Source: Acinetobacter phage SH-Ab 15599
Sequence record: MH517022.1
DNA length: 64,000 nucleotides
Reading direction: 5' to 3' (one strand)
Shown here one piece after another: positions 1,387-64,000 of the stretch. The position numbers were made by a program, and so were the translations under genes. The stretch's first letter is position 1. Every line of letters begins with the position of its first letter. A model generated the notes under the pieces. The model ran no database searches. It saw only the letters and a list, made by a program, of their open reading frames with translations, and was not told the origin of the DNA.

Positions 1387-1405
1387 CCACACGGTAGGCT
1401 GAGAG
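1387..1405 (+). repeat. ccacacggtaggctgagag motif, copy 1
   Basis: Identical 19-mer at 20383-20401. Near-identical at 35414-35431. Inverted variant at 63851-63869. Confidence 0.8.
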
Positions 1406-5251: not shown

Positions 5252-5313
5252 CCCATTAAAACAATAGCTTAACAAGGGAAGTAAAATATTTTTAAAAATA
5301 TTTTGAAAACCAC

Positions 5314-5342
5314 TTTACTTCCTACGTTAAAAAGTTAATAAT
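5314..5342 (+). promoter_or_regulatory. Early promoter ccacTTTACT-N17-aataat
   Basis: Matches the recurring promoter architecture. Followed by a leader containing ctcatcggagta before the ATG at 5419. Confidence 0.5.
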
Positions 5343-5418
5343 AGCTTTCATACAGGCTGAGATTGAAAATAAAGAAAATCTAGTCTGAACTTTACTAACA
5401 CTCATCGGAGTATCAGAA

Positions 5419-6099
5419 ATGACTACAGTTACAATCAAAAACGTACAAACTAACGCTTCTGTTGAAATCAATGTTGAAGATGTAAAATTAGCGGCTAAAC
5501 AATTACGTGAAGCAGGTCACTCTATCACTGCAGCTACAATCAACCGTATCTTGGAAACTGAAAAATCATCTGCTGGTTGGACAATCATCAAAGATGGTAA
5601 ACAATTCCCTTGGTCTGAGCGTGATGTTAAAAAATTCAAAATTACTGAAGAAGTTCAACCTACATTTGAGAACCTTTCTCATATCGTTGCAGAACAAGCT
5701 CCTGAAGTTGTTACTGAAGCAGTAGCAGAAGTGGCAGAACAAATTATCGAAGCTGAATATAGCAATGACCCAGACGATTTAACAGCTGATAATGTTAAAT
5801 GGTTAAAACGCAACGCGAAAGGTCCACAAGAGCTAGGCAAAGTGCGTAAAAACTCTAAAGTTTGGGAAATCATTGTATTACTCAAGAAAGAGCGTTTGAC
5901 TCTTAAACAAATCCAAGAAAAATTGTATGAAGTTGGTTTGGATGAAGATCAAATTGACGACTACAAAGTGACTCAAGCATTCTATGACGTAATGTGGAAA
6001 GGTTACAACATTGCTAAGATTGCGGTTGAAGGTGGAGAACCTGTATATGCTATCCGTCACCTTGACTTCACTAAAGTTACAGACATCCTTGTATATTAA
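5419..6099 (+). CDS. Hypothetical protein, 226 aa
   Basis: ORF with RBS ggag. An acidic central region. No recognised motif. Confidence 0.5.
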   Translation: MTTVTIKNVQTNASVEINVEDVKLAAKQLREAGHSITAATINRILETEKSSAGWTIIKDGKQFPWSERDVKKFKITEEVQPTFENLSHIVAEQAPEVVTEAVAEVAEQIIEAEYSNDPDDLTADNVKWLKRNAKGPQELGKVRKNSKVWEIIVLLKKERLTLKQIQEKLYEVGLDEDQIDDYKVTQAFYDVMWKGYNIAKIAVEGGEPVYAIRHLDFTKVTDILVY

Positions 6100-6676: not shown

Positions 6677-6702
6677 TCCCACAATTATTTTCTGATGCCC
6701 AC

Positions 6703-6731
6703 TTTACTTTCTAGTGATTTGGGCATATAAT
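6703..6731 (+). promoter_or_regulatory. Early promoter cccacTTTACT-N17-TATAAT
   Basis: Perfect -10, 17-nt spacer. Leader tcgctcatcggagta sits 10 nt before the ATG at 6772. Confidence 0.55.
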
Positions 6732-6771
6732 TACTTCACTAAATTCATTATCGCTCATCGGAGTAATTAAA

Positions 6772-7821
6772 ATGACAATCCACGCCTTTATCAATTCTGC
6801 TTTATATCGCAATTCTGAAATCTCTGGTCAATATGTTGTTTTTGGTAAAGAACCAAAGGACAAGGAATGTAAACGAGACTTTTATTTGAAATTGCGTCAT
6901 CCAGATACTGGTAAAGAGTTTGGCGTTCACATTTATGCTAAAGATGTCATTTTTAAAGATGAGAATGCCAACATTGTACATTTAGCTAATGGGCGAGTGA
7001 AGTCTTCCTCAGCTTCTGATTCTCAACCATCAACTGTTGTAACTCAAGAACCTGAGTTGACGGATGAAGAGTTGGATCGTATCATTTACAAACGTTTTCA
7101 AATTATGAGCCAATTGAGCGATTCTCTCATTCTAGGTCATACCAAAGCGTTGATTATTTCAGGAGCTCCTGGTATCTCTAAAACATTCACTCTTGAACAA
7201 AAATTGGATGATGCTTTGGAGTCTGGAGTAATTGAATCATTTGAACATCTCAAGGGGCGTGTTACACCTCTTCAGTTGTTTGTGAAACTTTATGAAAATA
7301 AAGACCCAGGCCACATTCTTTTGATTGATGACGTTAATCTATGGGGAGAAGAGAACTCAATTGAATTATTGAAGGCAGCTCTTGATACGGGTTCAAAACG
7401 TAGTGTAACTTGGGCGTCAACCGCGTCTTGGTTAAAGGAACAGAAGATACCAGAATCATTTGAATATGAAGGTTCTGTTTGTTTTATCACAAACGTTGAT
7501 TTTGACCGAGCAATAGCTCGCAATACATCTGCATCTGTTCACTTGAAAGCTCTTATCTCAAGAGCAAACTATCTTGATTTGAAAGTACACTCAAACAAAG
7601 AGATTCTTATCAGAGTGAAACAAATTGTGCGCGACTCATCTATTCTACAGTCAAATGGATTGTCTGAGGCGGACGGTAAAGAAATGTTACAATGGATGGA
7701 AGATAACATCGAGAAACTACGCGAGTTGTCTCTCCGCACGGTATTGAAGATAGCATCGTATATGAATACAAACCGTACAGATTGGACTGAAATTGCCGAA
7801 GTAATGCTGTTGAAAAAGTAA
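6772..7821 (+). CDS. AAA+ or P-loop ATPase
   Basis: Walker A motif GAPGISKT and Walker B motif ILLIDD. N-terminal roughly 110 aa of unknown function. Confidence 0.6.
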   Translation: MTIHAFINSALYRNSEISGQYVVFGKEPKDKECKRDFYLKLRHPDTGKEFGVHIYAKDVIFKDENANIVHLANGRVKSSSASDSQPSTVVTQEPELTDEELDRIIYKRFQIMSQLSDSLILGHTKALIISGAPGISKTFTLEQKLDDALESGVIESFEHLKGRVTPLQLFVKLYENKDPGHILLIDDVNLWGEENSIELLKAALDTGSKRSVTWASTASWLKEQKIPESFEYEGSVCFITNVDFDRAIARNTSASVHLKALISRANYLDLKVHSNKEILIRVKQIVRDSSILQSNGLSEADGKEMLQWMEDNIEKLRELSLRTVLKIASYMNTNRTDWTEIAEVMLLKK

Positions 7822-10019: not shown

Positions 10020-11147
10020 ATGCCAGCCGCCTATCCTTTGTTTATTCGAGGTGCAACTATCAATGAAACGGTCTATAATGCTATCAAAGCAATCATGGAA
10101 AACGGGTCAGAAATTGAAACCCGTAATGGTTCAGCTAAGTTCTTAAATGATTTAACTCTTCAAATCGATGATCCACGCCAGCGTCATCTCAGCCTTAAAG
10201 GGCGTACATCTAACATCTTTCAAATGATGGCTGAAACCTTCTGGGTGATGGCTGGTCATAGTCAAGTGTATAATTATCTCAATTTCTTTTTACCACGCGC
10301 TGTTAATTATAGCGATGATGGTAAAACTTGGCACGGCGCATATGGTCCGCGTCTGTATTGTTATAATCAGATGGAAGACTTGAGAGCAACATTTGTTCGA
10401 GAAGGTAAATCAACGCGCCGCGCTATTCTGATGATTGCGGATCCATCTATTGATAATTTGGATTATATCAGAAGCACTTATCAGTCTGAAACTCCTAAAG
10501 ACATACCATGTAACCGAGAAATTCATTTCTACATTACAGACAATGAATTCCACTGTAAAGTGATTCAACGTTCTGGTGATATGATCTTTGGTACGGGTTC
10601 TATCAATCCATTTGAATTTACATTCCTTCAAGAGTGTATCTATACCCGTCTGATTGAATTGCCTGGGTTTGAAGATGTAAAATTGGGTCATTACCGTTGG
10701 CACGTAACAAACGCTCATATCTATTCAGATCATTTCCAACAAGCTGAAAATATCATTACATCTCATCAGGTTCTAGAGGCGAGAGATTCTGAAGTAATGA
10801 GTATGAAGTGCTTATATAATAGAGAGGAGATGCACGAAATCATAACGGAAGTTGAGAATCTTATCTCAATACCTAATCCAGATTTCCTCATTGAAAAAGT
10901 AAAGAACTTATATCCAATGAGCGATTTTGTTGAACCAATTGAACTTTATCGTTTATTAGTTAGAACATATGCTATCGCAAAACGTTTGAAGACTCTAAAA
11001 TCAGACAAGAAATTAGTTCTTCAATTACCAACAATCAATAATGATTTGTATTATGCCATAACTGAAAGTACATTCCTCAATTTTGAAATTGTACATGGCT
11101 CATATACAAAATATATTTTTAAACCAAGTGACTCTATCGGAGCGTAA
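10020..11147 (+). CDS. Thymidylate-synthase-family pyrimidine hydroxymethylase (gp42-like dCMP or dUMP hydroxymethylase) with a roughly 100-aa C-terminal extension
   Basis: TS-fold motifs: RRAILMIAD, catalytic PC in DIPCNREIHFY, VIQRSGD, and HIYSDH aligned to TS GDTHLYSNH. Cys is followed by Asn rather than His, as in T4 gp42. Confidence 0.75.
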   Translation: MPAAYPLFIRGATINETVYNAIKAIMENGSEIETRNGSAKFLNDLTLQIDDPRQRHLSLKGRTSNIFQMMAETFWVMAGHSQVYNYLNFFLPRAVNYSDDGKTWHGAYGPRLYCYNQMEDLRATFVREGKSTRRAILMIADPSIDNLDYIRSTYQSETPKDIPCNREIHFYITDNEFHCKVIQRSGDMIFGTGSINPFEFTFLQECIYTRLIELPGFEDVKLGHYRWHVTNAHIYSDHFQQAENIITSHQVLEARDSEVMSMKCLYNREEMHEIITEVENLISIPNPDFLIEKVKNLYPMSDFVEPIELYRLLVRTYAIAKRLKTLKSDKKLVLQLPTINNDLYYAITESTFLNFEIVHGSYTKYIFKPSDSIGA

Positions 11148-14973: not shown

Positions 14974-17900
14974 ATGTCTCAAATTTTTCTAGAAGCATTT
15001 AATAGTCAACCATATGATACCGAGAAGGTTGAAAAGAATGGGTTGATGGATATTGTTTATACATTTCAGGATGAATCAAATAATGAATTTCGTTATCATT
15101 TTGAAAAACGCGTAAACTATGGTCGTAATGTATTTGTTTGTACCCTTGGTCAAAAGACTCCAAATCTAAAAACATACAAGCGCATCTTCTCCAATTTTAA
15201 AAATCCAATGCGTGTAATTGCAACGCTGATTAACATTGTTAAAGACGTACATGCCACTCGTAAAGATGTGAAGGGTATTATCTTTGAGATGCCAACTCAA
15301 GCCTTTGGTGCACACGGTAAATTGGTTGATAAAATCCTAGCTCGTGAATTGCGTTCTGTTATTACTGTTGAAGATATGAATTTCTCTATTGAAGAATTTG
15401 AGAAAATGCAACTTCAAGGTACAGTGACAACAGTGAAGCCTAACCGTATGCAAGATGTGTATACTGGTAAGATCATGAATGATATCTTTGCTCAACGCTC
15501 TGCTGGAACGGCAACAACTCCGGCAAAACAGCCTGTTGAAATGAAGAACATTAACCTCAGTACATTCAAAGCAGCTGCACCTCATGTGCCTCAAGCCGCT
15601 GAACAAAATGCCTCTACTGCCCCGAAGGTTGAAGCTGGTAATCTTAGTGGCCAAACCTTTAAAATCTCTGCTTATGACCGCGTAGAAGGCGCTCGTATGG
15701 AGATTGACTTTGCTAAAGATGATTCCGTCACTATTGGTGGGATCAAACGTCCAATGTCAAATTATCTTACATCTGTTGTAGACAAAGTGTTTGGTTCTCA
15801 ACCAGTTGATACAATCAAGAAGGTTGTAAACAAGTTGGTTGTTGATCTTCATCTCGGTACAGTAGAAATTGCTGACCAATTAGTGAATTTGAAGAAGGTA
15901 TTGGAAAAGGAAGGAGCAAAAGTCTCTCTTGAAACTCCATTCCCAGCTGCTGAAACGTCTCCTGAACCGTTTCCAGGCAGCCAAACTACTGACGGCGTGA
16001 AATTCAACTTCTCTTATGAAACTCATGTTCTCACTATGCCATCTGTTAAGGGCTACGATATTGGTTTAGTTTTGAATCAATTGTTAGGTGCATTCTCAGA
16101 ATCTTTTGAGAAGATGTCAAACAATGCGTATAAGATGGTAAAAGAGGAATTTCCAATTGAAAATTTCCTTGGTTTGTTAGCGAAGGTATCATTCAATAAA
16201 TTGATCGCCACGCGCATTTCCCCTAATTGGAGAAAAATTGTAGATGAAGCAGAGAATGTATACAGTCTATCAACTACATTCTATACATTGGTTGATCCAG
16301 ATTCTGAAAAATTTTTGGATGACTACGGTATCCTTGTTACATTCAAGAAAGATGATGCTGGCGTCTATCGTTTCATGAATTTGCAGTCTAAATCTAAATT
16401 GACAGAAGCAGCTATCAAGAAAGTACAATCTGCAGGAGCTTCAGTTGTTGATCAAGGTATTTCAGTAGCAATTACTGAAGATTGTAATCTTGAAAATAGT
16501 AAGGTTATTGTAGAGTTCATCAAAGCAAGTGACGACGCTTATACATTCGCGAGCCAAAGAGCGATCGATTACAAATTCAACGGTTACAAAGCAACCTACA
16601 AACCGAAGTATGCTGAAGTGAGCGTTCGCTTCAATAATACGCATATCTGCGGTCTTGAAGGGACTCCATTAGGTTCTTGGAACTCTGTTGTTACTAGCGA
16701 TAATACCATTGAATTTCTTATGATCAACAGCATTGAGAAGTTCTATCAATTGATGGATGCTCTCAAAGATTTCAACTTCCCTGAATTGTTGCCAACAGCT
16801 ATTAGAAATGGAAGCCAATACATTGCCGATGTATATGCTACTACTGGTTTGGAACAAGGCGAGAAAATATTCCCGCTTAAATCTGGCGGAGAGCTGAAAG
16901 TGGAGATTTACGGTGGTCTTATCTTCGCTACCATCAGTGGAGCTTCTTTCCCAGTAAATCTCAGACATCCAGAAGTGTTCTTCAACAAAGAGCGCACAAG
17001 CTTCCGTCTTTCTACTCAAGAATACAATACTGATGGCATTAAAGATTTCTTTGCTTCATTTGATGCTTTTATTAATACTCAATTGAACTCGGTTATTGGA
17101 AAAACTAATGAGCCTGTTATCTATGAAGCAACTGGTAAGTTTGAGACCACTGGCGTTGAAATTGTATTGACTCCTAGAGATAAAGTGTCAGCTTCAGTCG
17201 CTAAACAGGTGAAAGAAGTTATCAAAACTGTAGATGATACAGTTGCAGAAGCAGTTCAACCAGTGACTATTGATTTTGATAATCAAGGGCTGATTACCAT
17301 CAAAACAAACAGTATCTTAGCAGCGTATGTTGCTTGTGAACAGTTGATCGAGCAAACGAACAAGATCAGTAACTTTGCTATTATCAAAGTAAAAGAGTTG
17401 TTTGATGCTACTGGTTTCAACAAGAAAAGCCTATCTGTTGAATATAATTTTGAAGTTACTGGCAAAAATTCTGCCAATGTCAAGGTTCCAGCTGGCGCTC
17501 AAAAATCAGTTACAATGATTGCTCATTGTTTAGGGTTCTCTTTGAGTAGTGTTGATAACGGGGTACTTTCATTCCAAGGTGGAAATCCATCAGCTTTACA
17601 TTTTAACATTCATGTTCTTGGTAAACAATTGAAGACTCCGGAACTTTCTACTGATAAACCAGATGTAGTTATTCAGGCAACTAAAACTCTGGCTAAAAAG
17701 GCTCCTAAACTGGATAAAGTACGTCTTAATCCAGAAGCGTACTCATTTACAGCTGACGGGCGAGAGATTGCTCGCGCAGTAAAACGTAAAGTCAAGGGTG
17801 TGGATTCATCTGGTTGGGATGTGAGTGAATTTCAATCTGGAATTTCTCTTACTCAGTACAATTCTGTTGTAACGCTATTCAATGAATTTAAAGCGAAGTA

Positions 17901-18822
17901 CATTGCTTGGTTTATGGAAAATGCGGCTAGTGTTCAGATTCCAGAACTTGACCTTGGTCAATTCTCCACAGTGAAACCTGACGTCAAAGCGGCGTTCAAT
18001 ACTCTTTCTGTGGGTCTTCCGTCTCAAGACCGTGACAACAGTAAAACATTTGAATCAAATGGCGTAATTGTTAAGATTTTTGACAAAGGTGTTTCATTTG
18101 AGTCTGTTACTCCTAAGGGAAGCGTATCAAATATTGAGACTCGTCTGAAAGCTCACGGTTTGAAGACTTCTAAACGTATGGTTGGGGATATTGTTCTCAA
18201 GTTCTCCCGTGGAAGAAACGACTATGAAATGCGTATCAATGAAAATCGCATTATGTTCAAAGGTGTGCCGCAAGGTGTTCCTCATTCAGCTTCAAACTTT
18301 GTCAACGTTCCATCTTCTGTAGCTAATGGAACAGAAGCGCAAAACAACTTGATTAGAGACGGCTTGAGAAAGCTCTACACTGAAGAGGCTCCAGCGGCTC
18401 GTTTCTCTCGCTTCTTAGCTTCTATGTCTAGTCTTAATGAAACAACTAATACAGACGATAGACGTAAATCTCAAGTGACAGTTGACATTGATATGACTAA
18501 GCAAGCGAATGTAGACCTCATCAAGTCAATCCTGTCTCCATCCGGTAAGATGAATGAGTCTATCAAAGAAGATTTGACTGGCGTAGCTCCTAAGCGTAAC
18601 AAAGTTGATAAGAAATTGTTTGAAACTACATTACGCGGTCTAGGGTTCTACCAACCTACATTCTCTTATGGCGGCGCAGGGTTCCAGTTGACTTTGAATG
18701 AAGGTGTAGTTGATATCCTACCAACTTATGGTAATATCGTAAATCTTCAGAAGTTATTGAAGGCTCGTTTGGGCGCTGAGATTGTTACTGATGATCGCGG
18801 CGGCTTAACATTCTGCTTTTAA
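14974..18822 (+). CDS. Large hypothetical protein, 1282 aa, orphan
   Basis: Uninterrupted 3.8-kb ORF with RBS agagga. No recognisable catalytic motif. Occupies the position of primase gene 61 in T4. Confidence 0.6.
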   Translation: MSQIFLEAFNSQPYDTEKVEKNGLMDIVYTFQDESNNEFRYHFEKRVNYGRNVFVCTLGQKTPNLKTYKRIFSNFKNPMRVIATLINIVKDVHATRKDVKGIIFEMPTQAFGAHGKLVDKILARELRSVITVEDMNFSIEEFEKMQLQGTVTTVKPNRMQDVYTGKIMNDIFAQRSAGTATTPAKQPVEMKNINLSTFKAAAPHVPQAAEQNASTAPKVEAGNLSGQTFKISAYDRVEGARMEIDFAKDDSVTIGGIKRPMSNYLTSVVDKVFGSQPVDTIKKVVNKLVVDLHLGTVEIADQLVNLKKVLEKEGAKVSLETPFPAAETSPEPFPGSQTTDGVKFNFSYETHVLTMPSVKGYDIGLVLNQLLGAFSESFEKMSNNAYKMVKEEFPIENFLGLLAKVSFNKLIATRISPNWRKIVDEAENVYSLSTTFYTLVDPDSEKFLDDYGILVTFKKDDAGVYRFMNLQSKSKLTEAAIKKVQSAGASVVDQGISVAITEDCNLENSKVIVEFIKASDDAYTFASQRAIDYKFNGYKATYKPKYAEVSVRFNNTHICGLEGTPLGSWNSVVTSDNTIEFLMINSIEKFYQLMDALKDFNFPELLPTAIRNGSQYIADVYATTGLEQGEKIFPLKSGGELKVEIYGGLIFATISGASFPVNLRHPEVFFNKERTSFRLSTQEYNTDGIKDFFASFDAFINTQLNSVIGKTNEPVIYEATGKFETTGVEIVLTPRDKVSASVAKQVKEVIKTVDDTVAEAVQPVTIDFDNQGLITIKTNSILAAYVACEQLIEQTNKISNFAIIKVKELFDATGFNKKSLSVEYNFEVTGKNSANVKVPAGAQKSVTMIAHCLGFSLSSVDNGVLSFQGGNPSALHFNIHVLGKQLKTPELSTDKPDVVIQATKTLAKKAPKLDKVRLNPEAYSFTADGREIARAVKRKVKGVDSSGWDVSEFQSGISLTQYNSVVTLFNEFKAKYIAWFMENAASVQIPELDLGQFSTVKPDVKAAFNTLSVGLPSQDRDNSKTFESNGVIVKIFDKGVSFESVTPKGSVSNIETRLKAHGLKTSKRMVGDIVLKFSRGRNDYEMRINENRIMFKGVPQGVPHSASNFVNVPSSVANGTEAQNNLIRDGLRKLYTEEAPAARFSRFLASMSSLNETTNTDDRRKSQVTVDIDMTKQANVDLIKSILSPSGKMNESIKEDLTGVAPKRNKVDKKLFETTLRGLGFYQPTFSYGGAGFQLTLNEGVVDILPTYGNIVNLQKLLKARLGAEIVTDDRGGLTFCF

Positions 18823-18868: not shown

Positions 18869-18919
18869 ATTATTACACTATTTTATATTATAATTTATTT
18901 GCCCATTTGGAGATACAGA

Positions 18920-20308
18920 ATGAACGTTCATGAAATAATTCAAGCAACAAAGGCTGCTAAAGGTTCAAACAATAAGATTGGATTGTTGAACAATAACAGC
19001 AATAACAAATTGTTGGAAAACTTTTTGGCCACAACATATGATACCCGTGTATCATTTTATGTAAACAAATTTACAATGGGGGAACCCTCTGTTCAAGCCT
19101 ATGACGATATTGAAGTTGAGAATATGCTAGACTTCGTTCAATCATTGTCAGAACGCTTACTCACTGGTAACGCTGCCTTAGAAGCAATTACAGAGTTTAC
19201 TGGTCAATTGTCTGCTGAAGGTCAATCTTTATTCAACATGTTGATCAAACGCGACATTAAAGCAGGTGTTGCTGCAGGTACATTAATCAAAGTCTGGCCA
19301 AAGTCTATTTTTATTGAACCGTATCAACGTTGCTGTCTTGCTAAAGATACCAAAACTGATCTTCGTAACTGGGGCATGTATATCTCTCAGTTGAAGGCTG
19401 ACGGGATGTTCTCTTCTGCTAGTTGTTCAACTGAAATTGGTCATATTGCAAGCCGCGCTGGTACAATCTACCCTAAGAGTGCAGCATTTGATTTGGTGAA
19501 CTCAGAATTACAATCGCACGCTCATTTGGAAGCATTTCCAGGGGTTCTGGTTGGAGATTGTACTGTTGAAGGTGAGTTGATTGTTGTAAAAGATGGTAAA
19601 GAGTTACTCCGCGCTGAATCAAACGGTATGTTGAACTCATTACAACAGTCTGGCGAAGCTCTGCCTGAAGGTTATGACCTTGTTTATCATGTTTGGGATA
19701 TCCTTCCAACTGCGCGACGTACCTATAAGGGTACATTCAATGTAGCTTACAAACAACGCTTTGACGTAATTGAACGTTTGTTCGGTCAGGCTGGTGTCCG
19801 CGTGAAACCAATTGAAACCAAATTCTTCAATACATATGCTGAATGTGTGGCGCACTTCTTGGAAACAATCGGTCTTGGAAAAGAAGGTACAATCATCAAA
19901 CATCCATCAGCAACTTGGATGGACGGCGATAACCCTCTCCAAATCAAGATGAAGATTGAAGCTGAGTGTGAGCTACGTGTGAAAGGTTTCAATCCAGCTG
20001 AAGAAGCCTCGAAGTATGAACATCAATTTGGATCATTACAGTGTGAATCAGAAGATGGTTTGTTGGCAGTAGGCGTTTCATCTGGTTTGACTGACGCAAT
20101 GCGTACTGAACTTCATGCTATGGGAGACTCTCTGATTGAGTGCGTCATTACAGTTAAGTTTAATGACGTCATGCTTCCTAAAGAAGATCAAAACAAACAT
20201 AGTCTATTCCTACCTCGATTCGTTGAGTTGCGCCTAGATAAATCTTCAGCCGACTCGCTTCCACGTATTTTTGACATCTTTGAAGACGCTAAAAAGAATG
20301 CTTCGTGA
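18920..20308 (+). CDS. 30: ATP-dependent DNA ligase
   Basis: Adenylation motif KADG within SQLKADGMF. Size of about 460 aa resembles T4 gp30. Start placed at the ATG after ggag. Confidence 0.8.
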   Translation: MNVHEIIQATKAAKGSNNKIGLLNNNSNNKLLENFLATTYDTRVSFYVNKFTMGEPSVQAYDDIEVENMLDFVQSLSERLLTGNAALEAITEFTGQLSAEGQSLFNMLIKRDIKAGVAAGTLIKVWPKSIFIEPYQRCCLAKDTKTDLRNWGMYISQLKADGMFSSASCSTEIGHIASRAGTIYPKSAAFDLVNSELQSHAHLEAFPGVLVGDCTVEGELIVVKDGKELLRAESNGMLNSLQQSGEALPEGYDLVYHVWDILPTARRTYKGTFNVAYKQRFDVIERLFGQAGVRVKPIETKFFNTYAECVAHFLETIGLGKEGTIIKHPSATWMDGDNPLQIKMKIEAECELRVKGFNPAEEASKYEHQFGSLQCESEDGLLAVGVSSGLTDAMRTELHAMGDSLIECVITVKFNDVMLPKEDQNKHSLFLPRFVELRLDKSSADSLPRIFDIFEDAKKNAS

Positions 20309-20328
20309 GTGAGCAATAATTACTAAAA

Positions 20329-20401
20329 TCCATAAAAATTGCCCTGTTATTAACAGGGCTTTTTAGTGGTATTTTTAATGTTCCACACGGTAGGCTGAGA
20401 G
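20329..20401 (+). repeat. Composite intergenic element: tccataaaaattgc, terminator hairpin, spacer, ccacacggtaggctgagag
   Basis: Hairpin gccctgttattaacagggc plus T run at 20341-20365 (terminator for the ligase gene). Motif at 20383-20401. Same arrangement at 35359-35431 and, degenerate, at 51106-51180. Confidence 0.7.
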
Positions 20402-20461
20402 GTAAGAATTTATATGGGTTAGCAACATAAAAATAAATCTTAATTATTTTTGCCTAACCAC

Positions 20462-20490
20462 TTTACTTAAAACTTGAAAAGCGCTATTAT
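20462..20490 (+). promoter_or_regulatory. Early promoter ccaCTTTACT-N17-TATTAT
   Basis: Leader tcgctcaacggagta 10 nt before the ATG at 20529. Confidence 0.55.
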
Positions 20491-20528
20491 ATCTCTATCA
20501 AATATATTATCGCTCAACGGAGTAGACC

Positions 20529-20831
20529 ATGATTTCACTAGATACATTTCAAGCTCAAGTTCTTTTATCAATCGCACGTTGTTCTGATGTGAACAAGAAG
20601 GGCATAAGAATGGATGACCTTGCGTCTAAAGAAGACATTGAAACTAAAGACTATGGCTCTGCCCGCGTTGCTAAGATGGTTGGTTGTAATTATACCGTTT
20701 TAACTGAAACAATCAATTTTCTTCAACAAGAAGGATATATCAACTCAGTTGAACGCAGAAATGGAAAAGTCCTTATGATGTTTACTGATAAAGGCTACAA
20801 AATGATTAAAGAAATGGTAGCAGCAGCTTAA
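20529..20831 (+). CDS. Small putative winged-helix DNA-binding protein
   Basis: 100 aa. Pattern resembles MarR-like or winged-helix proteins. Weak call. Confidence 0.4.
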   Translation: MISLDTFQAQVLLSIARCSDVNKKGIRMDDLASKEDIETKDYGSARVAKMVGCNYTVLTETINFLQQEGYINSVERRNGKVLMMFTDKGYKMIKEMVAAA

Positions 20832-20928
20832 ACAATAATCCCAAATACAATGGCGTCTAAATGGCGTCATTTTTATTGCTTCTCCATAAATATTCTCAGT
20901 ACAAGAATTTTAACATTGGAAGAAGCCC

Positions 20929-27015: not shown

Positions 27016-27067
27016 ATAAATCAAATGAGAGGGAGTTCTACTCCCTCTTCACAGTGAGGAATGATTA

Positions 27068-31107: not shown

Positions 31108-31176
31108 TCAATTAGATCAAGATTTTGCCTTAACTAAATAATTCCATCAAGTTTATATATCCGAGGAACTAAGGTC

Positions 31177-32520: not shown

Positions 32521-32550
32521 TATCTCGTCTCCGATTCATAGAAAGAAAAA

Positions 32551-32571
32551 GCCCCGCAAGGGGCTTTTTCT
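32551..32571 (+). terminator. Rho-independent terminator gccccgcaaggggc plus tttttc (copy A)
   Basis: Perfect 5-bp GC stem with a GCAA tetraloop and a T run. An identical 25-mer recurs at 33609-33633. Confidence 0.8.
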
Positions 32572-32622
32572 TTTGTCAATAAAATAGTATAATGAATATT
32601 TTAGCAAATACAACTAATCATT

Positions 32623-33609
32623 ATGTCATTCTATGTTTACAAACTAACAGTTGAAGATCAAGAGTTACCATTTTATATTGGTAAAGGACAAGGCAACAGA
32701 GCGTACTATCATTTCAAGAACGATTGTTTCAACAATGACTCAAATCGCCACAAAGTCAATACGATACTCAAAGCCAAGAAAGAAGGCAAAGAGATATTGG
32801 TTGAGTTTGTGAAGCACAATTTGACGGAACAAGAAGCTCTTCAGTTCGAAATGGAACTCATCTCTCGTTATGGTAGAAGGGATATTGGAACTGGATGTCT
32901 CACAAATATGACAAACGGCGGAGATGGGGTAAGTGGTCTAGTTCACTCTGAAGAAACAAGAAAGAAATTAAGCAATATATCTAAACAACAATTCAGTTCT
33001 CCAGAGGCGAGAGAACAACTGAGATTGTATAGCAGAAAGGCTCAACAGATAATCTGGGGAAGAGATAGACAAAAACACGTAGAAAGGGTCAAGAAGCAAG
33101 CCAAAGAGAATTATGAAAACGGCAATAAAGAAAATCTCTTAAACGGCATTAAAAACTGGGTAGAGACTAATCCAGAACAAGTGTTGGAACGTAATAAAAA
33201 GATTAAGGAAGCCATGAGTTCGGACAAGAATAGACAACTCGTAGGCGAAAGAACTAAACGCCTCTATAATGATCCAAGCTACCGTGCAGCTGTATTCCCG
33301 CCGTTCCATCGTTCACCTCGGTATTTGAAACCATCTGCGCCTGATTTAAGAGAACGTCAAATGTTATGTGCATGCCTCGGTCTGTTTTACAATTTTTGGG
33401 TTGAGAATGGTAAGAGAACATTCAGTTTCTATGAGAACCCTAACAGCGTTGGATTTGCTTTCGATAACAAGATACTGGTTCAACCAATTAAACAATTTCA
33501 AATGGGATACAACCCGTGGGATTGTGAAGAGTATGTGCAGTGGCATACGACTCAACCAGTAGATCAATATTGGAAAGAATTGAATATTACCAATAAGAGG
33601 GTAAAATAA
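32623..33609 (+). CDS. GIY-YIG homing endonuclease (Seg-like) with NUMOD-like repeats
   Basis: N-terminus YVYKLTVEDQELPFYIGKGQGNRAYYH is the GIY-YIG motif. Downstream SEETRKKLSN-type repeats resemble NUMOD modules. Confidence 0.85.
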   Translation: MSFYVYKLTVEDQELPFYIGKGQGNRAYYHFKNDCFNNDSNRHKVNTILKAKKEGKEILVEFVKHNLTEQEALQFEMELISRYGRRDIGTGCLTNMTNGGDGVSGLVHSEETRKKLSNISKQQFSSPEAREQLRLYSRKAQQIIWGRDRQKHVERVKKQAKENYENGNKENLLNGIKNWVETNPEQVLERNKKIKEAMSSDKNRQLVGERTKRLYNDPSYRAAVFPPFHRSPRYLKPSAPDLRERQMLCACLGLFYNFWVENGKRTFSFYENPNSVGFAFDNKILVQPIKQFQMGYNPWDCEEYVQWHTTQPVDQYWKELNITNKRVK

Positions 33610-33611
33610 AA

Positions 33612-33632
33612 GCCCCGCAAGGGGCTTTTTCA
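33612..33632 (+). terminator. Rho-independent terminator gccccgcaaggggc plus tttttc (copy B)
   Basis: Identical to copy A. Flanks the homing endonuclease gene on its other side. Confidence 0.8.
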
Positions 33633-33694: not shown

Positions 33695-33755
33695 ACGCTT
33701 CATACAGAACAAACTGTATAGAATCTTACATAATATCACTCTTTGGAGTATCAAA

Positions 33756-34127
33756 ATGCTTTTAACAATGGATAACATTTCTAATTTTGTATCTGAAAAT
33801 TCAGAAGTTATGAACCTTCAATCTGTCTTAGAAACATTAGGATTCCGTGGCGCAGGTAACCAAGTTGCTTTTGGTATACTTTCTAAACGAGTTATTTTTG
33901 GCGCTCAATTTTTAAAAATGATGGGCGTTAACCCGAGTAAAGCAAAATCTTTAAACCCTCAATTCAAGTTTGTTGAATGTGAATATATTGAAGAGCCACT
34001 AGATTTCTCTCAATTCCAACCTGTTGGTCGTATGGAGTCAAGCTTTACAGTATATGATATTAGCAAACTGGGTGATGTATTTGTATTGCGGGCGCAGAAC
34101 GGTTGTAAAGCAATAGTAACAATGTAA
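33756..34127 (+). CDS. Hypothetical protein, 123 aa
   Basis: ORF behind a promoter plus RBS, ended by a bidirectional terminator. Confidence 0.45.
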   Translation: MLLTMDNISNFVSENSEVMNLQSVLETLGFRGAGNQVAFGILSKRVIFGAQFLKMMGVNPSKAKSLNPQFKFVECEYIEEPLDFSQFQPVGRMESSFTVYDISKLGDVFVLRAQNGCKAIVTM

Positions 34128-34159
34128 TAAAAAGCCCCTCAGGTGAGGGGCTTTTCTTT
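34126..34159. terminator. Bidirectional terminator at the convergence point of the two arms (gcccctc-aggt-gaggggc)
   Basis: A-tract upstream and a T-tract downstream. A nearly identical hairpin occurs at 40188-40205. Confidence 0.75.
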
Positions 34160-35158: not shown

Positions 35159-35341
35159 TTAATGCTCCTTTTTCTTTCCAACAACTATCATAACAGTGCG
35201 CCGATATCCGGTGGTATAATCTTTAACCGATTTTGGTTTTCCATTCCACTTATACCATCCACCACCTTTGATATCATTCAGATCAGTACCTTTTGCAACT
35301 TCAGTCGTATTCATTTCTTTCTCCGCTTCGTCTTTGTTCAT
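35159..35341 (-). CDS. Hypothetical small protein, 60 aa
   Basis: Short ORF. Weak call. Confidence 0.3.
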   Translation of the reverse strand: MNKDEAEKEMNTTEVAKGTDLNDIKGGGWYKWNGKPKSVKDYTTGYRRTVMIVVGKKKEH

Positions 35342-35358
35342 GATCAGTATATCCTAAA

Positions 35359-35431
35359 TTCCATAAAAATTGCTCTGATATATACAGAGCAATTTGACTG
35401 TATTTTATATGTCCCACACGGTAGGCTGAGA
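35359..35431 (+). repeat. Composite element copy 2 (tccataaaaattgc, hairpin gctctgatatatacagagc, cccacacggtaggctgaga)
   Basis: Same order and orientation on the plus strand as the copy at 20329-20401, although the flanking genes here are on the minus strand. Confidence 0.7.
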
Positions 35432-35436
35432 CATAG

Positions 35437-35994
35437 TTAATTCTCTGTATCTACTGGCTTGCAAAGATATGTATCGGGATACTCTTGCACAGAGTTTATA
35501 TCCATAGCATATTTCGCAGGGCGTTGACCAAGAATTTTGAGTGGAGGCGCATTCCCAGATTCACTAATACACTCTCCAAACTGATTATACATTCGCATTT
35601 GCTCAGTTGGATCTTCAAATACAACAACGTATTCATTTGTACGGAAAGATTGGACTTTCGAAACAATTAAGGTCTTTCTGTTCTTCTGAATGATCTGTTG
35701 TCCATCTTGAAGTTTATCCATGTCAACCATCTTCCAGCCCATATCATATCCTTGTATAGTGAAGATATTCAAGGCAGGTATGTCCATAGCAACTTTACCG
35801 CGTTCATCTACAATGATTCTGAACGAAGTTTGGTCATCTTTGGTATTCTCCCCATTATAGAGAACCAACTTCAAATCATAGAGGGCGTAAGTGTCTTTGA
35901 CATTATTAGTCTTGTTTCTTTCCTTAACAAGATAGATTCCAGCATCTGTGGACACTGTAGTTACATTGGGAACGAAATCAGCTACATTAACCAT
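35437..35994 (-). CDS. Hypothetical protein, 185 aa. Tandem paralog B
   Basis: VADFVPNVTTVSTDAGIYLVKE and EYVVVFEDPTEQMRMYN parallel the upstream paralog EDFVPNLTRVKLKNGHIYLIKE and YYIVFEDENMVIMSYD. Confidence 0.5.
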   Translation of the reverse strand: MVNVADFVPNVTTVSTDAGIYLVKERNKTNNVKDTYALYDLKLVLYNGENTKDDQTSFRIIVDERGKVAMDIPALNIFTIQGYDMGWKMVDMDKLQDGQQIIQKNRKTLIVSKVQSFRTNEYVVVFEDPTEQMRMYNQFGECISESGNAPPLKILGQRPAKYAMDINSVQEYPDTYLCKPVDTEN

Positions 35995-40182: not shown

Positions 40183-40213
40183 AAGAAGCCCCTCAAGTGA
40201 GGGGCTTTTCTTT
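40183..40213. terminator. Bidirectional terminator (gcccctc-aagt-gaggggc), near-identical to the one at 34134
   Basis: Same hairpin with a single loop change. A-tract and T-tract on the two sides. Confidence 0.75.
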
Positions 40214-41423: not shown

Positions 41424-41490
41424 GGATTTCCATAACAAGGGAATAATTCTCTGTTTACTTTAAATGTCAAACAACTTTTGGAGAAATGAC

Positions 41491-41766
41491 ATGAACCGTA
41501 CTGACTTAATCGCTGCTGTAGCAAAAGAAACTGGTAACACTCAAGCTGTTGTTGAAGCTGTAATTAAAGCATCTGAAGGTAAAATTGCTGAAGCCCTAAT
41601 TGCTGGCGAAAACGTACAACTTGTTGGCTTTGGTACTTTTAAATCAACGCCTAAAGAAGCAACAACTGCTCGTAACCCTAAAACTGGCGAAGAAGTGGCA
41701 GTTGCAGCTACAAACCGCGTTACATTCAGCGTTTCAGATGCTCTGAAAGAACGTTTGAAAAAATAA
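41491..41766 (+). CDS. HU or IHF-family (DNABII) DNA-binding protein
   Basis: MNRTDLIAAVAKETG...GENVQLVGFGTFKSTPKEATTARNPKTGEEVAVAATNRVTF is the canonical HU signature (GFGTF, R.ARNP.TGE). Confidence 0.8.
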   Translation: MNRTDLIAAVAKETGNTQAVVEAVIKASEGKIAEALIAGENVQLVGFGTFKSTPKEATTARNPKTGEEVAVAATNRVTFSVSDALKERLKK

Positions 41767-51020: not shown

Positions 51021-51105
51021 TAATCTCCAATGGAATGACGTATTATAATAGAAAAATAATCACTATTATAAAAACAACTTTGTGAGTGGACAAAATTTTT
51101 CTAAA

Positions 51106-51180
51106 TCCATAAAAAATGCCCTGTAGGAATCAGGGCGAAAGGTGTGTTATTTTAACAAGACACACGGTAGTGCGGTACAG
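51106..51180 (+). repeat. Degenerate composite element copy 3 (tccataaaaaat, hairpin gccctgtaggaatcagggc, cacacggtag)
   Basis: Same plus-strand orientation. The hairpin with an upstream A-tract acts as the minus-strand terminator for the 51181 gene. Confidence 0.55.
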
Positions 51181-55747: not shown

Positions 55748-56494
55748 TCATTGGTTAATTTCCAAAATAAACTGAAGATTACCAAAGCCTTGTTTCTTGA
55801 ACAAAGCGATTTCTCCAATCTTTATCCCAGGATATTCAGCGTCCATCAATGGGCCGTATTCTGAACAGTTGACTTTGATATCTTTGCCTAGTTTAAATCC
55901 AGAATGAATAGCCTCGATAACAGCTTCAGGAGTTTTCAAATAACGTTTGTATTGAATAGGAGACGTTTTGATTGAACCTTTGTTAACAACAACTGCGTTC
56001 TTATCAGTGAAAACATTATGCATAGGGATATAAGAATCTCCCCAGAAAGATTCCTTTCGGTGAGGTTGAATCCACATCTTGGCACCAATACAACCCTCAG
56101 CATCTACTACAAATTTGTAAGTTATATTGTCAATCATCAAACGGAAATCTTCCAAATCAACTTCTTCAAAATGTTTAGCTGCATAAGCCATATCAATAGC
56201 AGTCGCTTGTTTTGATGCCACTTTGAAAGCAACGTAGTGTTTACCTGCTTCGACAACTGTTTTGTTACCATTGATGATAATAGCATCAATGTTTTCTTTG
56301 AATGTTGGTTTAGGAATTACAGAACCAAAATGAAAATCTATGAGCTTTTGAGAAGCTGGAGCAAGAGTTGAGATGAAAGTTGGAATATAATTTTGACCCG
56401 TATGGTTGAACGGCGTTACAATGTAAAAATCATCTTTGTCGTATTTGTTAACAAGAATTTTTTGAAAACCAGAAATATAGAAGCCTTCAGACAT
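55748..56494 (-). CDS. Hypothetical protein, 248 aa
   Basis: ORF with an RBS. No motif recognised. Confidence 0.5.
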   Translation of the reverse strand: MSEGFYISGFQKILVNKYDKDDFYIVTPFNHTGQNYIPTFISTLAPASQKLIDFHFGSVIPKPTFKENIDAIIINGNKTVVEAGKHYVAFKVASKQATAIDMAYAAKHFEEVDLEDFRLMIDNITYKFVVDAEGCIGAKMWIQPHRKESFWGDSYIPMHNVFTDKNAVVVNKGSIKTSPIQYKRYLKTPEAVIEAIHSGFKLGKDIKVNCSEYGPLMDAEYPGIKIGEIALFKKQGFGNLQFILEINQ

Positions 56495-56593
56495 TTTGAT
56501 ACTCCAATGAGCGATAGTAATTAAAAACCCTTAGATGGGTTACATCTAAGGGCTATTATAATGAACATTTTGTTCTGGTTTTAAAATCAAGTT

Positions 56594-59514: not shown

Positions 59515-60996
59515 TCAAATTTGCATCATTATAGAATTAATTGGATGCCCTTCTTCAACATAGATGCTCAGACGTTCTCCGGCAAATTCCATTGACTTGT
59601 TCTTCTTGCCACTGAATTGCATAATATCAAAGATATCATAGATATAAGCAATATCTTTTGAATCATGCAGACGCAATAGACGACCAATGGATTGTTGAAT
59701 TGAAATGTTAGTCTTTCTAGGGTGAGCATATACCAAGTTATGAAGCTTCTTGATACTGATACCAGTTGAGGTTGTACCATAGGTTGCTAACAGAACAATA
59801 TCATCTCCGCGTTCAATGATAGCTTTGATATCATCCCGTTCTTCAACTTTGATATCTCCATGAATAACAAAATGGTAAACGCCCTTCTCAGTAAGCTTAG
59901 CACTGATTATTTCAATATGCTCAATGTTATTGAATAAGAATAGGCTATTTCCTTTCAGTCTTGATGCAAGGCGTACAATAACATCATTACGAGGTTCATA
60001 CTCAATAAGAAAGTCCATCTCGTCTCTATAGTTTGGATTATTACGCCACTTTCTTCTCACTTCTGTCGGATATTCCAATCCAATCATGTTAACAACGGTT
60101 TTAGTGGCTAATCCTCTGTCTTGAAGTTCTTTTGTTGAGATGAGACGTAATGAGTCACCAAAATGTTTAGCAACCTTCATTCTATGATCTTCACTGTTAC
60201 GTCTTAATGTAGCAGTTAGACCTAGACGTTGCCAACAGTTGATACAGTTATTAGCAATATTATCAAGAGTGTCAGAACCGAAAGTGTGAGCTTCATCTCC
60301 CATAAGGAAATTGAACCCATAAAAATACTCTCTTTCTTGCTTCCCAAGAGTTTGCCAAGTGCAGATGATAATCTGTTTTCTTGAATAAGGAGATACGCCG
60401 TCACCAGCCTTATGACAATTCATATCTACTGACCAATTAGAGTCATGAGATGAATAATCTCCAAAGTCAGCGTATGTCTGATTCACTAATTGTAAAGTTG
60501 GGACAACAATAAGAATCTTGCCTTCCTCTCCCATCATCTCTTGCCAAAATCTACAACATAGATATTGTAATAGAGTCTTACCAGCAGATGTAGCAGCCAA
60601 AGCCAAATATCTTGAATACTTGATACTGTTGTATAGACCTTCTACTTGGTAGTCATAAGGAGTTATTTTGTTACCGCCGCTTCTAATATCAAGATTGTCA
60701 ACCCATTCTTGAATATCTTTGCGCTCGATTGGTCTGATGATTTCTTTAATACATTCCTGGATGTCTGCTTTTTCTTCGTATAATTTACAATAACTGAGAA
60801 CCATGGATAACATACCAGATGGAAATGTTCCATTTTTTCTATTGAACAGGCGCTTCTTTCCATCCCATTTTGAGAATTGATTTTGTTGGAACTCTGGTTC
60901 CTTATATCTCATTTCTTCGTACAAGCTCTGAATCAGACTCTCATTATCGGTCTCAATAAAGAATGTACTTGCATTTACAGCGCCGATATAAGCCAT
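59515..60996 (-). CDS. uvsW: UvsW-like SF2 helicase
   Basis: Walker A motif ATSAGKT and the DEAH box LMGDEAHTF. 493 aa, like T4 UvsW. Confidence 0.8.
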   Translation of the reverse strand: MAYIGAVNASTFFIETDNESLIQSLYEEMRYKEPEFQQNQFSKWDGKKRLFNRKNGTFPSGMLSMVLSYCKLYEEKADIQECIKEIIRPIERKDIQEWVDNLDIRSGGNKITPYDYQVEGLYNSIKYSRYLALAATSAGKTLLQYLCCRFWQEMMGEEGKILIVVPTLQLVNQTYADFGDYSSHDSNWSVDMNCHKAGDGVSPYSRKQIIICTWQTLGKQEREYFYGFNFLMGDEAHTFGSDTLDNIANNCINCWQRLGLTATLRRNSEDHRMKVAKHFGDSLRLISTKELQDRGLATKTVVNMIGLEYPTEVRRKWRNNPNYRDEMDFLIEYEPRNDVIVRLASRLKGNSLFLFNNIEHIEIISAKLTEKGVYHFVIHGDIKVEERDDIKAIIERGDDIVLLATYGTTSTGISIKKLHNLVYAHPRKTNISIQQSIGRLLRLHDSKDIAYIYDIFDIMQFSGKKNKSMEFAGERLSIYVEEGHPINSIMMQI

Positions 60997-61040
60997 TGTT
61001 GGTCACTCTGTGGAAATTCATATTACTTATGAATATTAAG

Positions 61041-61370
61041 TCAGAATTGCCAAGACTCTATTGCTTCTTTGATTATCTCAGCGTGACAAGGTCTAGGAGC
61101 ACACCAACACTCTAATTTCAATGTCCCTTGTTTTGAGAGGTCTCTGAGTCTTCTCAATTCTTGTATTATGACTTGGTCTTGTTCAAAGTATACCTTAGCC
61201 CAGAGCCAGTCTTTATATTTCAATATAGCTTGTTCAACAGTTCTTGCTTTGAACCGAGCTATGGTATCATTGGAATGAGAAAATGGATTACCCAATAAAG
61301 ATGGGCGACCAACATACACTGTCTCGCCCGTTCTGTAATCCATATTGCGTTTATTGGTTACCAGAATCAT
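61041..61370 (-). CDS. DUF4326-like small protein
   Basis: GNPF ... CWCAPRPCHA pattern. Confidence 0.4.
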   Translation of the reverse strand: MILVTNKRNMDYRTGETVYVGRPSLLGNPFSHSNDTIARFKARTVEQAILKYKDWLWAKVYFEQDQVIIQELRRLRDLSKQGTLKLECWCAPRPCHAEIIKEAIESWQF

Positions 61371-61767
61371 AGATATATCTGTAATCCTTGATTGCTTGCT
61401 CTAGTGCTGGTTTCTCGAATAGAGTAGCATATTTGTTACTCCCTTGATTGATACTGTATAGAATATCAATCGCTTCTGCTAGACCTCTTTCAAATGCTTT
61501 GATTTGAGAAATTGAATCAGTTATACGTTTGAGGACAGAGAGGTTCATGAGTTCTTGAGCTTCATCAATGGCTCGATAGATTTCTTGCTCTGCCTTTACC
61601 CAAACCTTCCAATTGAAACGCCAATATTCTCCATCAACTATCTTTACAAAGGTTGGGATATTATGCATGGAATTGATATATAGCAGTTCAGATTCATCTG
61701 GGGCTGTTTCCAAAGTATCTTTAACGTCTTCAATTCTGCGGGATATAATGAACTCTTTTAATTTCAA
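61351..61767 (-). CDS. Hypothetical protein, 138 aa
   Basis: ORF in the operon. Confidence 0.4.
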   Translation of the reverse strand: MKLKEFIISRRIEDVKDTLETAPDESELLYINSMHNIPTFVKIVDGEYWRFNWKVWVKAEQEIYRAIDEAQELMNLSVLKRITDSISQIKAFERGLAEAIDILYSINQGSNKYATLFEKPALEQAIKDYRYIYDSGNQ

Positions 61768-63699: not shown

Positions 63700-63850
63700 G
63701 ATTGACTCCTATAAAGAACTTCTATAATAAGGCTGGAAACGTTCATTTATTATAAATCAATAATTCGTTGGCTTTGTTCATGAACAAAAATATTTAAAAT
63801 TGTCTTTTTATTGTCTGGAATTAACAAAGGAGTTTGATTGTTATTTTTGT

Positions 63851-63869
63851 CTCTCAGCCTACCCTGTGG
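63851..63869 (-). repeat. Inverted variant of the ccacacggtaggctgagag motif (ccacagggtaggctgagag on the minus strand)
   Basis: The reverse complement of 63845-63875 reads cgccacagggtaggctgagagacaaaaataaca, compared with tccacacggtaggctgagagtcaaaaataaca at 1386-1417. Confidence 0.7.
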
Positions 63870-63896
63870 CGAGAGTCATTTTGCTGTACTCGGTAA

Positions 63897-63918
63897 TACT
63901 CGGGCTGCGCCCTCGCAT
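63897..63918 (-). repeat. Inverted copy of the atgcgagggcg(a/c)agcccgagta motif
   Basis: The reverse complement gives atgcgagggcgcagcccgagta, compared with atgcgagggcgaagcccgagta at 1170-1191. Confidence 0.7.
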
Positions 63919-64000
63919 CACCTCAAAACCTGTTGCGGTGAGCAATCGGGAATAGGAACCACCCTTTCTCAGATTCTTCTCTTGAATACATAACCGACCA

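Follow-up and report, generated by a model that had tools for sequence, protein, structure and literature searches.

Behind the ligase gene of Acinetobacter phage SH-Ab 15599 there is an intergenic element in which a GC-rich hairpin is joined to a conserved 19-nt motif, and which recurs at dispersed positions of the genome, with the composite copies on the same strand regardless of the direction of the neighboring genes. The question raised by this locus is what such an element could be for, since a first, sequence-only reading left room for a binding site of a phage regulator, an unusual late or middle promoter, a signal for replication or packaging, or what is left of a small mobile element. 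The analysis presented here leads to a lineage-specific cassette in which a terminator would be followed by a promoter or regulator site, a reading that we favor at a little under an even chance of its being right, and against which several others have to be weighed.

Genomic context

The window, that is, the whole stretch of DNA analyzed, comprises the first 64 kb of SH-Ab 15599 (MH517022.1; genome of 143,204 bp), which, judged by its sequence, is a distant T4-superfamily myovirus. The Pfam and PHROG matches found in the window include a T4-type portal, baseplate wedge, sheath and split topoisomerase II, together with a family-B polymerase, a sliding clamp, UvsY and RegA. Genes are transcribed rightward to ~35.1 kb, and leftward from ~63.7 kb back to ~35.2 kb. 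The DNA of this phage carries a diaminopropane-modified thymine, and time-resolved RNA-seq reads of it exist (PMC13458397). The only sequenced relative is Acinetobacter phage nACB2, with a collinear genome of 136,560 bp, a portal 80% identical and a ligase about 68% identical to those of SH-Ab 15599; the motif is not mentioned in the nACB2 genome paper.

Other features of the window can be recorded here. Its first 105 positions (1-105) are a run of A residues, probably a contig-end or library artefact of the record and not phage sequence. Between the helicase-primase and ligase genes lies an ORF of 1282 aa (14974-18822), assigned only to a PHROG of unknown function and with no match in Pfam or PDB, that is kept in nACB2 and in distant relatives (1093-1431 aa). 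The phage encodes its own HU/IHF-family DNA-binding protein (likely 41464-41766; Pfam Bac_DNA_binding, E about 1e-26), with a counterpart in nACB2_042; in a phage with hydroxymethyl-uracil-derived DNA, this recalls the TF1 protein of SPO1.

The repeat family

The 19-mer CCACACGGTAGGCTGAGAG has four matches at up to 3 mismatches on the two strands of the window, at 1387-1405 (+), 20383-20401 (+), 35414-35432 (+, 1 mismatch) and 63851-63869 (-, 1 mismatch), where the expectation by chance is 0 (none in 100 shuffles). The 10-nt core CACACGGTAG is also found exactly at 51161. A direct-repeat family of 100 nt has three members, 20301-20400, which serves as its reference, 35332-35431 (76% identical) and 51078-51177 (64%), and these composites, at 20.3, 35.4 and 51.1 kb, are all on the plus strand; an inverted repeat of 76-99 nt, 82% identical by blastn, links 1387-1485 to 63772-63869. 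In the nhmmer census, members (E ≤ 0.1) were divided from noise (E > 1) by a clean gap, and the profile search yielded no further copy of the family in the window. All five copies fall within the non-coding 9.5% of the window (P about 8e-6), and none forms part of coding sequence.

The match and repeat searches bear out the 19-mer and the composites that the sequence-only reading had described, with small corrections. The second composite, which it placed one base too early, runs from 35360 to 35432, and the 9-mer AGGCTGAGA that it had noticed in a 5′ leader is present, at 5354 and not at 5355. This 9-mer has a second stray occurrence inside a gene at 10187 (-), and the leader occurrence was treated as chance, given two strays against 0.55 expected; the nACB2 orthologue of that leader is devoid of AGGCTGAGA. 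As for the single absolute orientation, it holds for every composite copy, and not for the solo copy at 63851, which is inverted.

The first composite (c1, 20301-20409, +; nhmmer E=1.3e-25) stands directly after the ligase stop codon (20306-20308). It contains a left motif, TACTAAAATCCATAAAAATTGC (20321-20342, +), the A-tract of which, read on the other strand, provides the minus-strand terminator with its T-tract; the hairpin GCCCTGTTATTAACAGGGC (20341-20359), a bidirectional intrinsic terminator with a T-run on both strands and with covariation; a T-tract and AT-rich spacer (20360-20382, +; TATTTT at 20370-20375), conserved in length and free in sequence, that is a possible UP-like element; the box formed by the 19-mer (20383-20401, +); and, 2 nt past the box, the -10-like hexamer AAGAAT (20404-20409, +), in the geometry TCCACA-N16-AAGAAT. 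The second composite (c2, 35332-35432, +; hairpin 35367-35395, box 35414-35432) lies between the minus-strand ORFs 35437-35994 and 35159-35341, and the third (c3, 51078-51178, +; hairpin 51118-51136, core 51161-51170, with the 3′ half of the box degenerate) between a minus-strand gene of 236 aa and uvsY. The two solo copies are L (1387-1413, +; box 1387-1405, AAAAAT 1408-1413), located in a non-coding region of 1.5 kb (106-1617) upstream of the sliding-clamp gene, and R (63843-63869, -; box 63869-63851 with 1 mismatch, AAAAAT 63848-63843), which heads the minus arm.

Structure of the element

Along the plus strand, the parts of a composite follow one another in a constant order: a flank related to the palindrome CTTTGTTCATGAACAAAG, the motif CTAAAATCCATAAAAAT, the GC-stemmed hairpin, the T-tract, the AT-rich spacer and the box. 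As in c1, the A-tract of CTAAAATCCATAAAAAT doubles as the T-tract of the minus-strand terminator, and the hairpin was scored as a terminator on one or both strands, in agreement with the earlier suggestion that it could serve on either; the T-tract of the composites is strong only at the ends of plus-strand genes. Pairing in the stem is preserved by covariation, with 79.8% of cells pairing versus 24-54% with slid partners, and five pairs carry double changes, for example, from C-G to T-A in c2. The distance from hairpin to core is 23-25 nt in every copy, in a spacer whose sequence identity is only 9-61%, whereas the box, at 63-95%, is the best-conserved segment.

The box is made up of the core CCACACGGTAGG and a 3′ half specific to each genome, GCTGAGAG in SH-Ab 15599 and GYTGGA in nACB2. 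Among the 12 sites of the two genomes, six positions of the 10-nt core are invariant and the other four nearly so, and the profile comprises an all-A/T patch at -14 to -9, a conserved C-CACACGGTAG-GcTGg, and a second A/T patch at +20 to +27. From these comparisons, the cis element is real, selected and specific to the lineage, and the earlier proposal of a regulator site is upheld insofar as the element, which is asymmetric and lies between genes, is a selected recognition site of the kind that proteins bind.

The surroundings of the copies contain further repeated sequences. The perfect 18-nt palindrome CTTTGTTCATGAACAAAG (a TGTTCATGAACA palindrome) is found at 1468-1485, ~80 nt downstream of L, and again at 63772-63789, ~80 nt downstream of R, with variants of the form TGTTCATGATCA on the left flank of c1-c3, including one at 35335, and another at nACB2 113080; its form resembles that of an operator bound by a dimeric regulator. 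The gene arms are headed by non-coding regions (106-1617 and 63700-64000 in the window; 1-1115 and 60533-61760 in nACB2), which may be origin or regulatory hubs, to judge by their sequence. Within them, a GC-rich element of 24 nt, ATGCGAGGGCGAAGCCCGAGTATT, occurs at 1170-1193 and as an inverted copy, 96% identical, at 63895-63918; it holds a GCGAAGC/GCGCAGC mini-hairpin, and its nACB2 version is shortened symmetrically in the stem. A small-RNA gene in the 100 nt common to L and R was rejected, since in nACB2 this stretch is not conserved beyond the core and the palindrome and it has no terminator.

Conservation in nACB2 and in metagenomic contigs

The nACB2 genome holds four full composites, all on the plus strand, at 18790 (n18, after the ligase gene), 34416 (n34), 47856 (n47, upstream of uvsY) and 84118 (n84, downstream of terL), a further composite at 113080 (+) in which the core has decayed and the hairpin is kept, and solo cores at 61094 (-; n61a, at the head of the minus arm), 61434 (+; n61b) and 71698 (+; n71). 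The hairpin-less boxes are thus L, R, n61a, n61b and n71, and among them L, R, n61a and n61b each point into the gene block that they head, with n61a and n61b forming a divergent pair 340 nt apart. Copies are retained at orthologous positions between flanking proteins only 44-68% identical (44% for the gene flanking the copy on the uvsY side). Together with the absence of terminal inverted repeats, this speaks against the remnant of a mobile element that had been proposed; a MITE was likewise rejected, as the two ends of the similarity, CTTTGT... and ...GAGAG, do not form an inverted repeat, and no duplicated flanks are seen in the alignments.

The copies of one genome are, however, closer to each other than to their orthologues (c1-c2 73% vs c1-n18 60%; n47-n84 87%), and for this reason the sequences indicate that they undergo concerted evolution within a genome. 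This is also what would be expected if the box were a functionless passenger of a duplicated terminator cassette, kept alike by gene conversion, and the near-identity of n47 and n84 and the copy at 113080, which lost its core and kept the hairpin, could be read in the same way. But a passenger should not be so much better conserved than the adjoining spacer, nor exist without the hairpin at five sites, nor be retained at orthologous sites across such divergent proteins, and we regard this explanation as very improbable.

In metagenomic material the element is associated with mosaic junctions. Two nACB2-like contigs, L004 and L015, lose their homology to nACB2 at the hairpin's left edge. In L004, 95-100% identical to nACB2, gene 017 (nACB2 18892-19281) is missing, and in nACB2 this gene is bounded by duplicated promoter cassettes, as in PeSL-style indels; what has been replaced in L015 is the segment to the left of the composite on the terL side. 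Two other nACB2-like assemblies, L010 and L011 (Logan/ENA), end within the composite, 22-67 nt past the ligase stop, where a break would be expected if those genomes, too, contained the element in repeated form. Beyond this group, the ligase relatives at 45-54% identity (L007-L009) have another gene order and no motif after the ligase. Among phage records, megablast of the locus gave no match and distant blastn of the composite only nACB2; in IMG/VR, the exact 19-mer had 0 matches and a 15-mer had 33, of which the real ones were two nACB2-like contigs only, and searches of IMG/VR and metagenomes for the locus by portal or ligase returned only nACB2-like or tiny contigs. The independent genomes that carry the motif are therefore two only.

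Flanking hexamers and the direction of the box

A -10-like hexamer is found 7-11 nt past the core in 10 of the 12 copies, for a background of 0.029 per position, and this hexamer and the AT patch at -14 to -9 (T in 9/12 and A in 10/12 copies) count in favor of the cassette; on the opposite side of the core, such hexamers are about equally enriched (8 of 12), so that the sequence alone leaves the direction unfixed. The gene-facing copies L, c1 and R share TCCACA-N16-AARAAT at identical spacing, with the box filling the spacer, although TCCACA is weak as a -35-like element. The antisense copies c2 and c3 are without this AARAAT hexamer, and c2 has no good -10-like hexamer at the spacing found in L, c1 and R.

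If the left-hand hexamers were the functional ones, the box would be the conserved 5′ end of a transcript in the same direction (+1 to about +19), with TG-n-TAWWWT at -16 to -9 as its promoter, and would act as an RNA leader or as a signal of the initially transcribed region. What keeps this variant alive is the presence of -10-like hexamers on both sides, a sigma70-like promoter at L (TTTACC-16-AATAAT, ending 7 nt before the box), and the nACB2 box at 71698, followed by GGAG-N7-ATG, which would make a leader of 23 nt. To these can be added the fixed register of the left AT patch (the first two positions of the hexamer being T in 9/12 and A in 10/12 copies), the TGn extended -10 forms at c1, c3 and n47/n84, and the late-type CTAAATWAT 4-5 nt before the core at nACB2 L and R. 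Nonetheless, the -35 position would fall inside the hairpin in the composites, the discriminator would be long (8-9 nt), the 19 nt are predicted to be unstructured and have no Rfam match, and the right-hand hexamer and the identically placed AARAAT of L, c1 and R would be left unexplained; on balance, this reading appears distinctly unlikely.

The hexamers to the left also admit a function of the minus strand, in which the reverse-complemented box and a TAAAAT-like -10 would drive a tiny RNA ending at the hairpin, or in which the box, 5-14 nt past the stop codon of minus-strand genes, would be a 3′-UTR element. In its favor are TAAAAT, TATTAT or TATAAT, 5-8 nt past the reverse-complemented core in 8 of the 12 copies, the T-run ATTTTTATGG present in every SH-Ab 15599 composite, even in the plus arm, and in most of those of nACB2 (it is degenerate in n34 and in the weak n71), and the closeness of the box behind the upstream stop codon in c2, c3, n47 and n84. 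However, every solo copy would fire away from its own gene block, the product would be an RNA of 30-45 nt terminating at once and without a known role, there is no minus-strand gene at c1 and n18, and in L004 the minus-strand T-run has decayed, the hairpin, spacer and box being kept; we therefore hold little belief in this alternative, which we consider very unlikely.

Strand bias and possible nick sites

The orientation of the copies poses a different problem, as a single strand carries 11 of the 12 boxes and every one of the 8-9 composites, regardless of gene direction, with copies at intervals of 10-19 kb. Localized nick sites of phages offer a precedent. As described for those of T5, phiKMV-like and tf/LUZ24-like phages (PMC3517423), the sites have dispersed asymmetric consensus sequences of 9-20 bp, defined by sequence and strand alone and lying essentially on one strand despite convergent transcription, with positions conserved among relatives and small changes of the consensus; phage tf, with convergent gene sets, has 14 sites, all on the top strand and at positions common to its relatives. 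The boxes share with them the single strand (with one copy inverted) and the conserved positions. The differences are that the sites described here, known from their sequence, are strictly intergenic, tied to a terminator, flanked by -10-like hexamers and in one case inverted.

It could be that the box is a strand-specific site acting at the level of DNA: a programmed single-strand nick, a signal for an origin or for priming, or a polar roadblock in aid of the neighboring terminator. Such a site would account for positions conserved between relatives while the recognition sequence drifts, a behavior reported for the tf, phiKMV and T5 nick sites (PMC3517423). With a spacing of 23-25 nt, a polymerase sitting on the T-tract would have the bound protein at its front edge, and L and R are located in large origin-like non-coding regions, with the mini-hairpin mentioned above and an AT-rich stretch conserved between L and R. 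On the other hand, a nick requires neither a strictly intergenic location, nor a fixed link to a hairpin, nor -10-like flanks; one copy (R/n61a) is inverted, and no nickase gene was identified. This possibility is unlikely, yet it retains an appreciable share of plausibility. Its most specific version, in which a phage of the T4 superfamily would have strand-specific sites programmed for nicking or priming, is highly improbable. With a late-transcription machinery of the T4 type (sliding clamp, gp33-like co-activator, nTAAATA), fixed nicks at the boundaries of transcription units could be built-in clamp-loading “enhancers” of late transcription or fixed starting points of replication.

Comparison with known promoters and terminators

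The closest likeness of the element is to the PeSL/PmSL cassettes of T4-like phages, composites of terminator and promoter (Arbiol 2010; Comeau 2014, PMC4122927). In both, an AT-rich stretch, a conserved promoter-type box and a -10-like hexamer come directly after a stem-loop terminator; each genome has several copies, dispersed and with a sequence specific to each phage pair; and copies border the indels or replacements by which close relatives differ. The stem-loop immediately upstream is present here, with terminators on both strands, covariation and the constant 23-25 nt, and so is the association with indels or replacements, in two cases only (L004 and L015). As to a sigma70-like -35 and -10 at proper spacing, the picture is divided: an AT patch and hexamers past the core are present, but the -35-like TCCACA is weak and the hexamers are as enriched on the opposite side. 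In contrast, the box is neither a sigma70 -35 (TTGACA/TTTACW) nor a TGCTT Mot box, the copies are few and located in part between core genes, outside hyperplastic regions, about half of them are antisense with all composites in one absolute orientation, and most are without an SD and start codon next to them; of all the copies, only nACB2 71698 has both close to the 3′ end, and c1 is separated by 125 nt from the gene that follows, for which there is a separate promoter, TTTACT-17-TATTAT. The earlier statement that the element was not simply a terminator plus promoter is not supported by this comparison, as stem-loop, AT-rich stretch, box and -10-like hexamer follow in the order described for the PeSL/PmSL architecture (PMC4122927).

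A plain bidirectional rho-independent terminator has the same GC-rich stem, upstream A-tract, downstream T-tract and compensatory stem changes, but would leave unexplained the box at a fixed distance and the hairpin-less copies. T4 middle promoters of the MotA/AsiA type, including ori(uvsY) and ori(34), resemble the element in that a box replaces a proper -35 at about -30, with the -10 ~10 bp downstream, and in that one copy adjoins uvsY and another stands at the head of the genes for clamp and clamp loader. In T4, an origin promoter does not have to serve the expression of genes. The middle promoters differ in an unrelated box sequence, in its length (16-19 bp here vs 9), and in that the copy adjoining uvsY faces away from it. 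The MotA box, (a/t)(a/t)(a/t)TGCTT(t/c)A centered at -30, was rejected, the box being CCACACGGTAGG, and MotA_activ, MotCF and AsiA had no match in the small ORFs searched, 50 from the window and 59 from nACB2. Domain matches in these 109 small ORFs included a gp33-like co-activator, RegA, the HU-like protein and a weak winged-helix protein.

A late promoter, as proposed in the sequence-only reading, had to be abandoned: the late genes of both phages are preceded by nTAAATA and not by the box, to which it is unrelated. This appears to be the late promoter of the lineage (CATAAATA, TGTAAATA and ACTAAATA, at 20890-20900, 27025-27035 and 31135-31145, and before nACB2 late genes too), and the T4 late consensus TATAAATA is absent from the whole 64-kb window. 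Two other candidates were rejected: a promoter for a T7-like single-subunit RNA polymerase, as no domain of such a polymerase was found (the only large orphan ORF in this check being 14974-18822) and there are only 4-5 copies, and a known RNA family, as an Rfam scan of the whole window gave 0 matches at the gathering threshold.

The SH-Ab 15599 genome also contains ordinary cassettes of hairpin plus TTTACY-N17-TATWAT. The main promoter family has the form AATTATTTTT..CCACTTTACTT-N17-TATAAT (377-403, 5294-5320, 6683-6709 and 20442-20468), and downstream of it, immediately ahead of the start codon, comes a leader that is conserved, ATCGCTCAaCGGAGTA (5388-5423, 6726-6776, 20485-20524, 33726-33758 and 56492-56524). 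GC-rich terminator hairpins of two more families, GCCCCGCAAGGGGC and GCCCCTCAnGTGAGGGGC, also recur almost unchanged at separate loci (32545-32573 and 33603-33631; 34129-34159 and 40183-40213).

The cassette as a proposed terminator-promoter unit

The element would then be a lineage-specific terminator-promoter cassette of the PeSL/PmSL kind, and its box a rightward-facing promoter or regulator element. The order of parts shared with PeSL/PmSL, the TCCACA-N16-AARAAT of L, c1 and R, and the solo copies facing their own blocks are the reasons for which a rightward box is favored. Accordingly conceived, the GC-stemmed hairpin between A-tract and T-tract would stop transcription arriving from either side, and the asymmetric box to its right would be the recognition core of a rightward promoter. 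The terminator T-tract and the AT patch would act as a UP-like element and would fall at about -57 to -41, in UP-element territory, which could be why the spacing between hairpin and core is fixed. TCCACA would occupy the -35 position, the rest of the box would fill the conserved 16-nt spacer and be bound there by a phage-encoded factor, and AARAAT or TAnnnT would serve as the -10. The hairpin-less solo boxes head both gene arms; gene conversion would homogenize the copies within a genome, and the copies would be crossover points between relatives. Of this scheme, the sequences show the repeat family, the structure of the terminator, the constant spacing, the retention at orthologous positions, the concerted evolution and the mosaic junctions; that the box is active as a promoter, which way it faces and what factor binds it are the parts that we infer.

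A candidate for the factor is a protein of 100 aa with a weak winged-helix match, encoded right after c1 (20529-20831, +), which by inference only could bind the box. It is 24% identical to its nACB2 counterpart, versus 68-80% for ligase and portal, and the coexistence of a genome-specific 3′ half of the box with an unusually divergent winged-helix gene beside it was counted, as a matter of sequence, for the cassette. Its predicted structure is of low confidence (mean pLDDT 50.7), and a homologue search returned only the protein itself.

Some observations go against a promoter in the cassette. The copies c2, c3, n47 and n84 face antisense, and the site groups c2/n34, c3/n47 and n84, antisense into minus-strand genes, the latter into terL, count against it. 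In n18 there is no good -10 at the expected place; and at nACB2 71698, 13 nt separate the core from a start codon that has a good SD, so that a -10 downstream of the box would start the RNA inside that gene. With ~8 copies per genome, the family is too small for a general temporal class of promoters.

Implications

Should the box prove to be a promoter or a site for a regulator, it would constitute a new regulatory signal and probably imply a new DNA-binding factor, in a lineage of A. baumannii therapy phages with diaminopropane-modified thymine and without the MotA/AsiA system of T4, and PeSL-type cassettes, in which regulation is mixed with recombination, would extend far outside the classical T4-likes. 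If, instead, the nick reading were true, the localized nicks would gain the function that has been missing since their discovery in T5. The unusual part is the near-uniform strand orientation, and should transcription mapping be unable to explain it, a directional DNA process would be implied.
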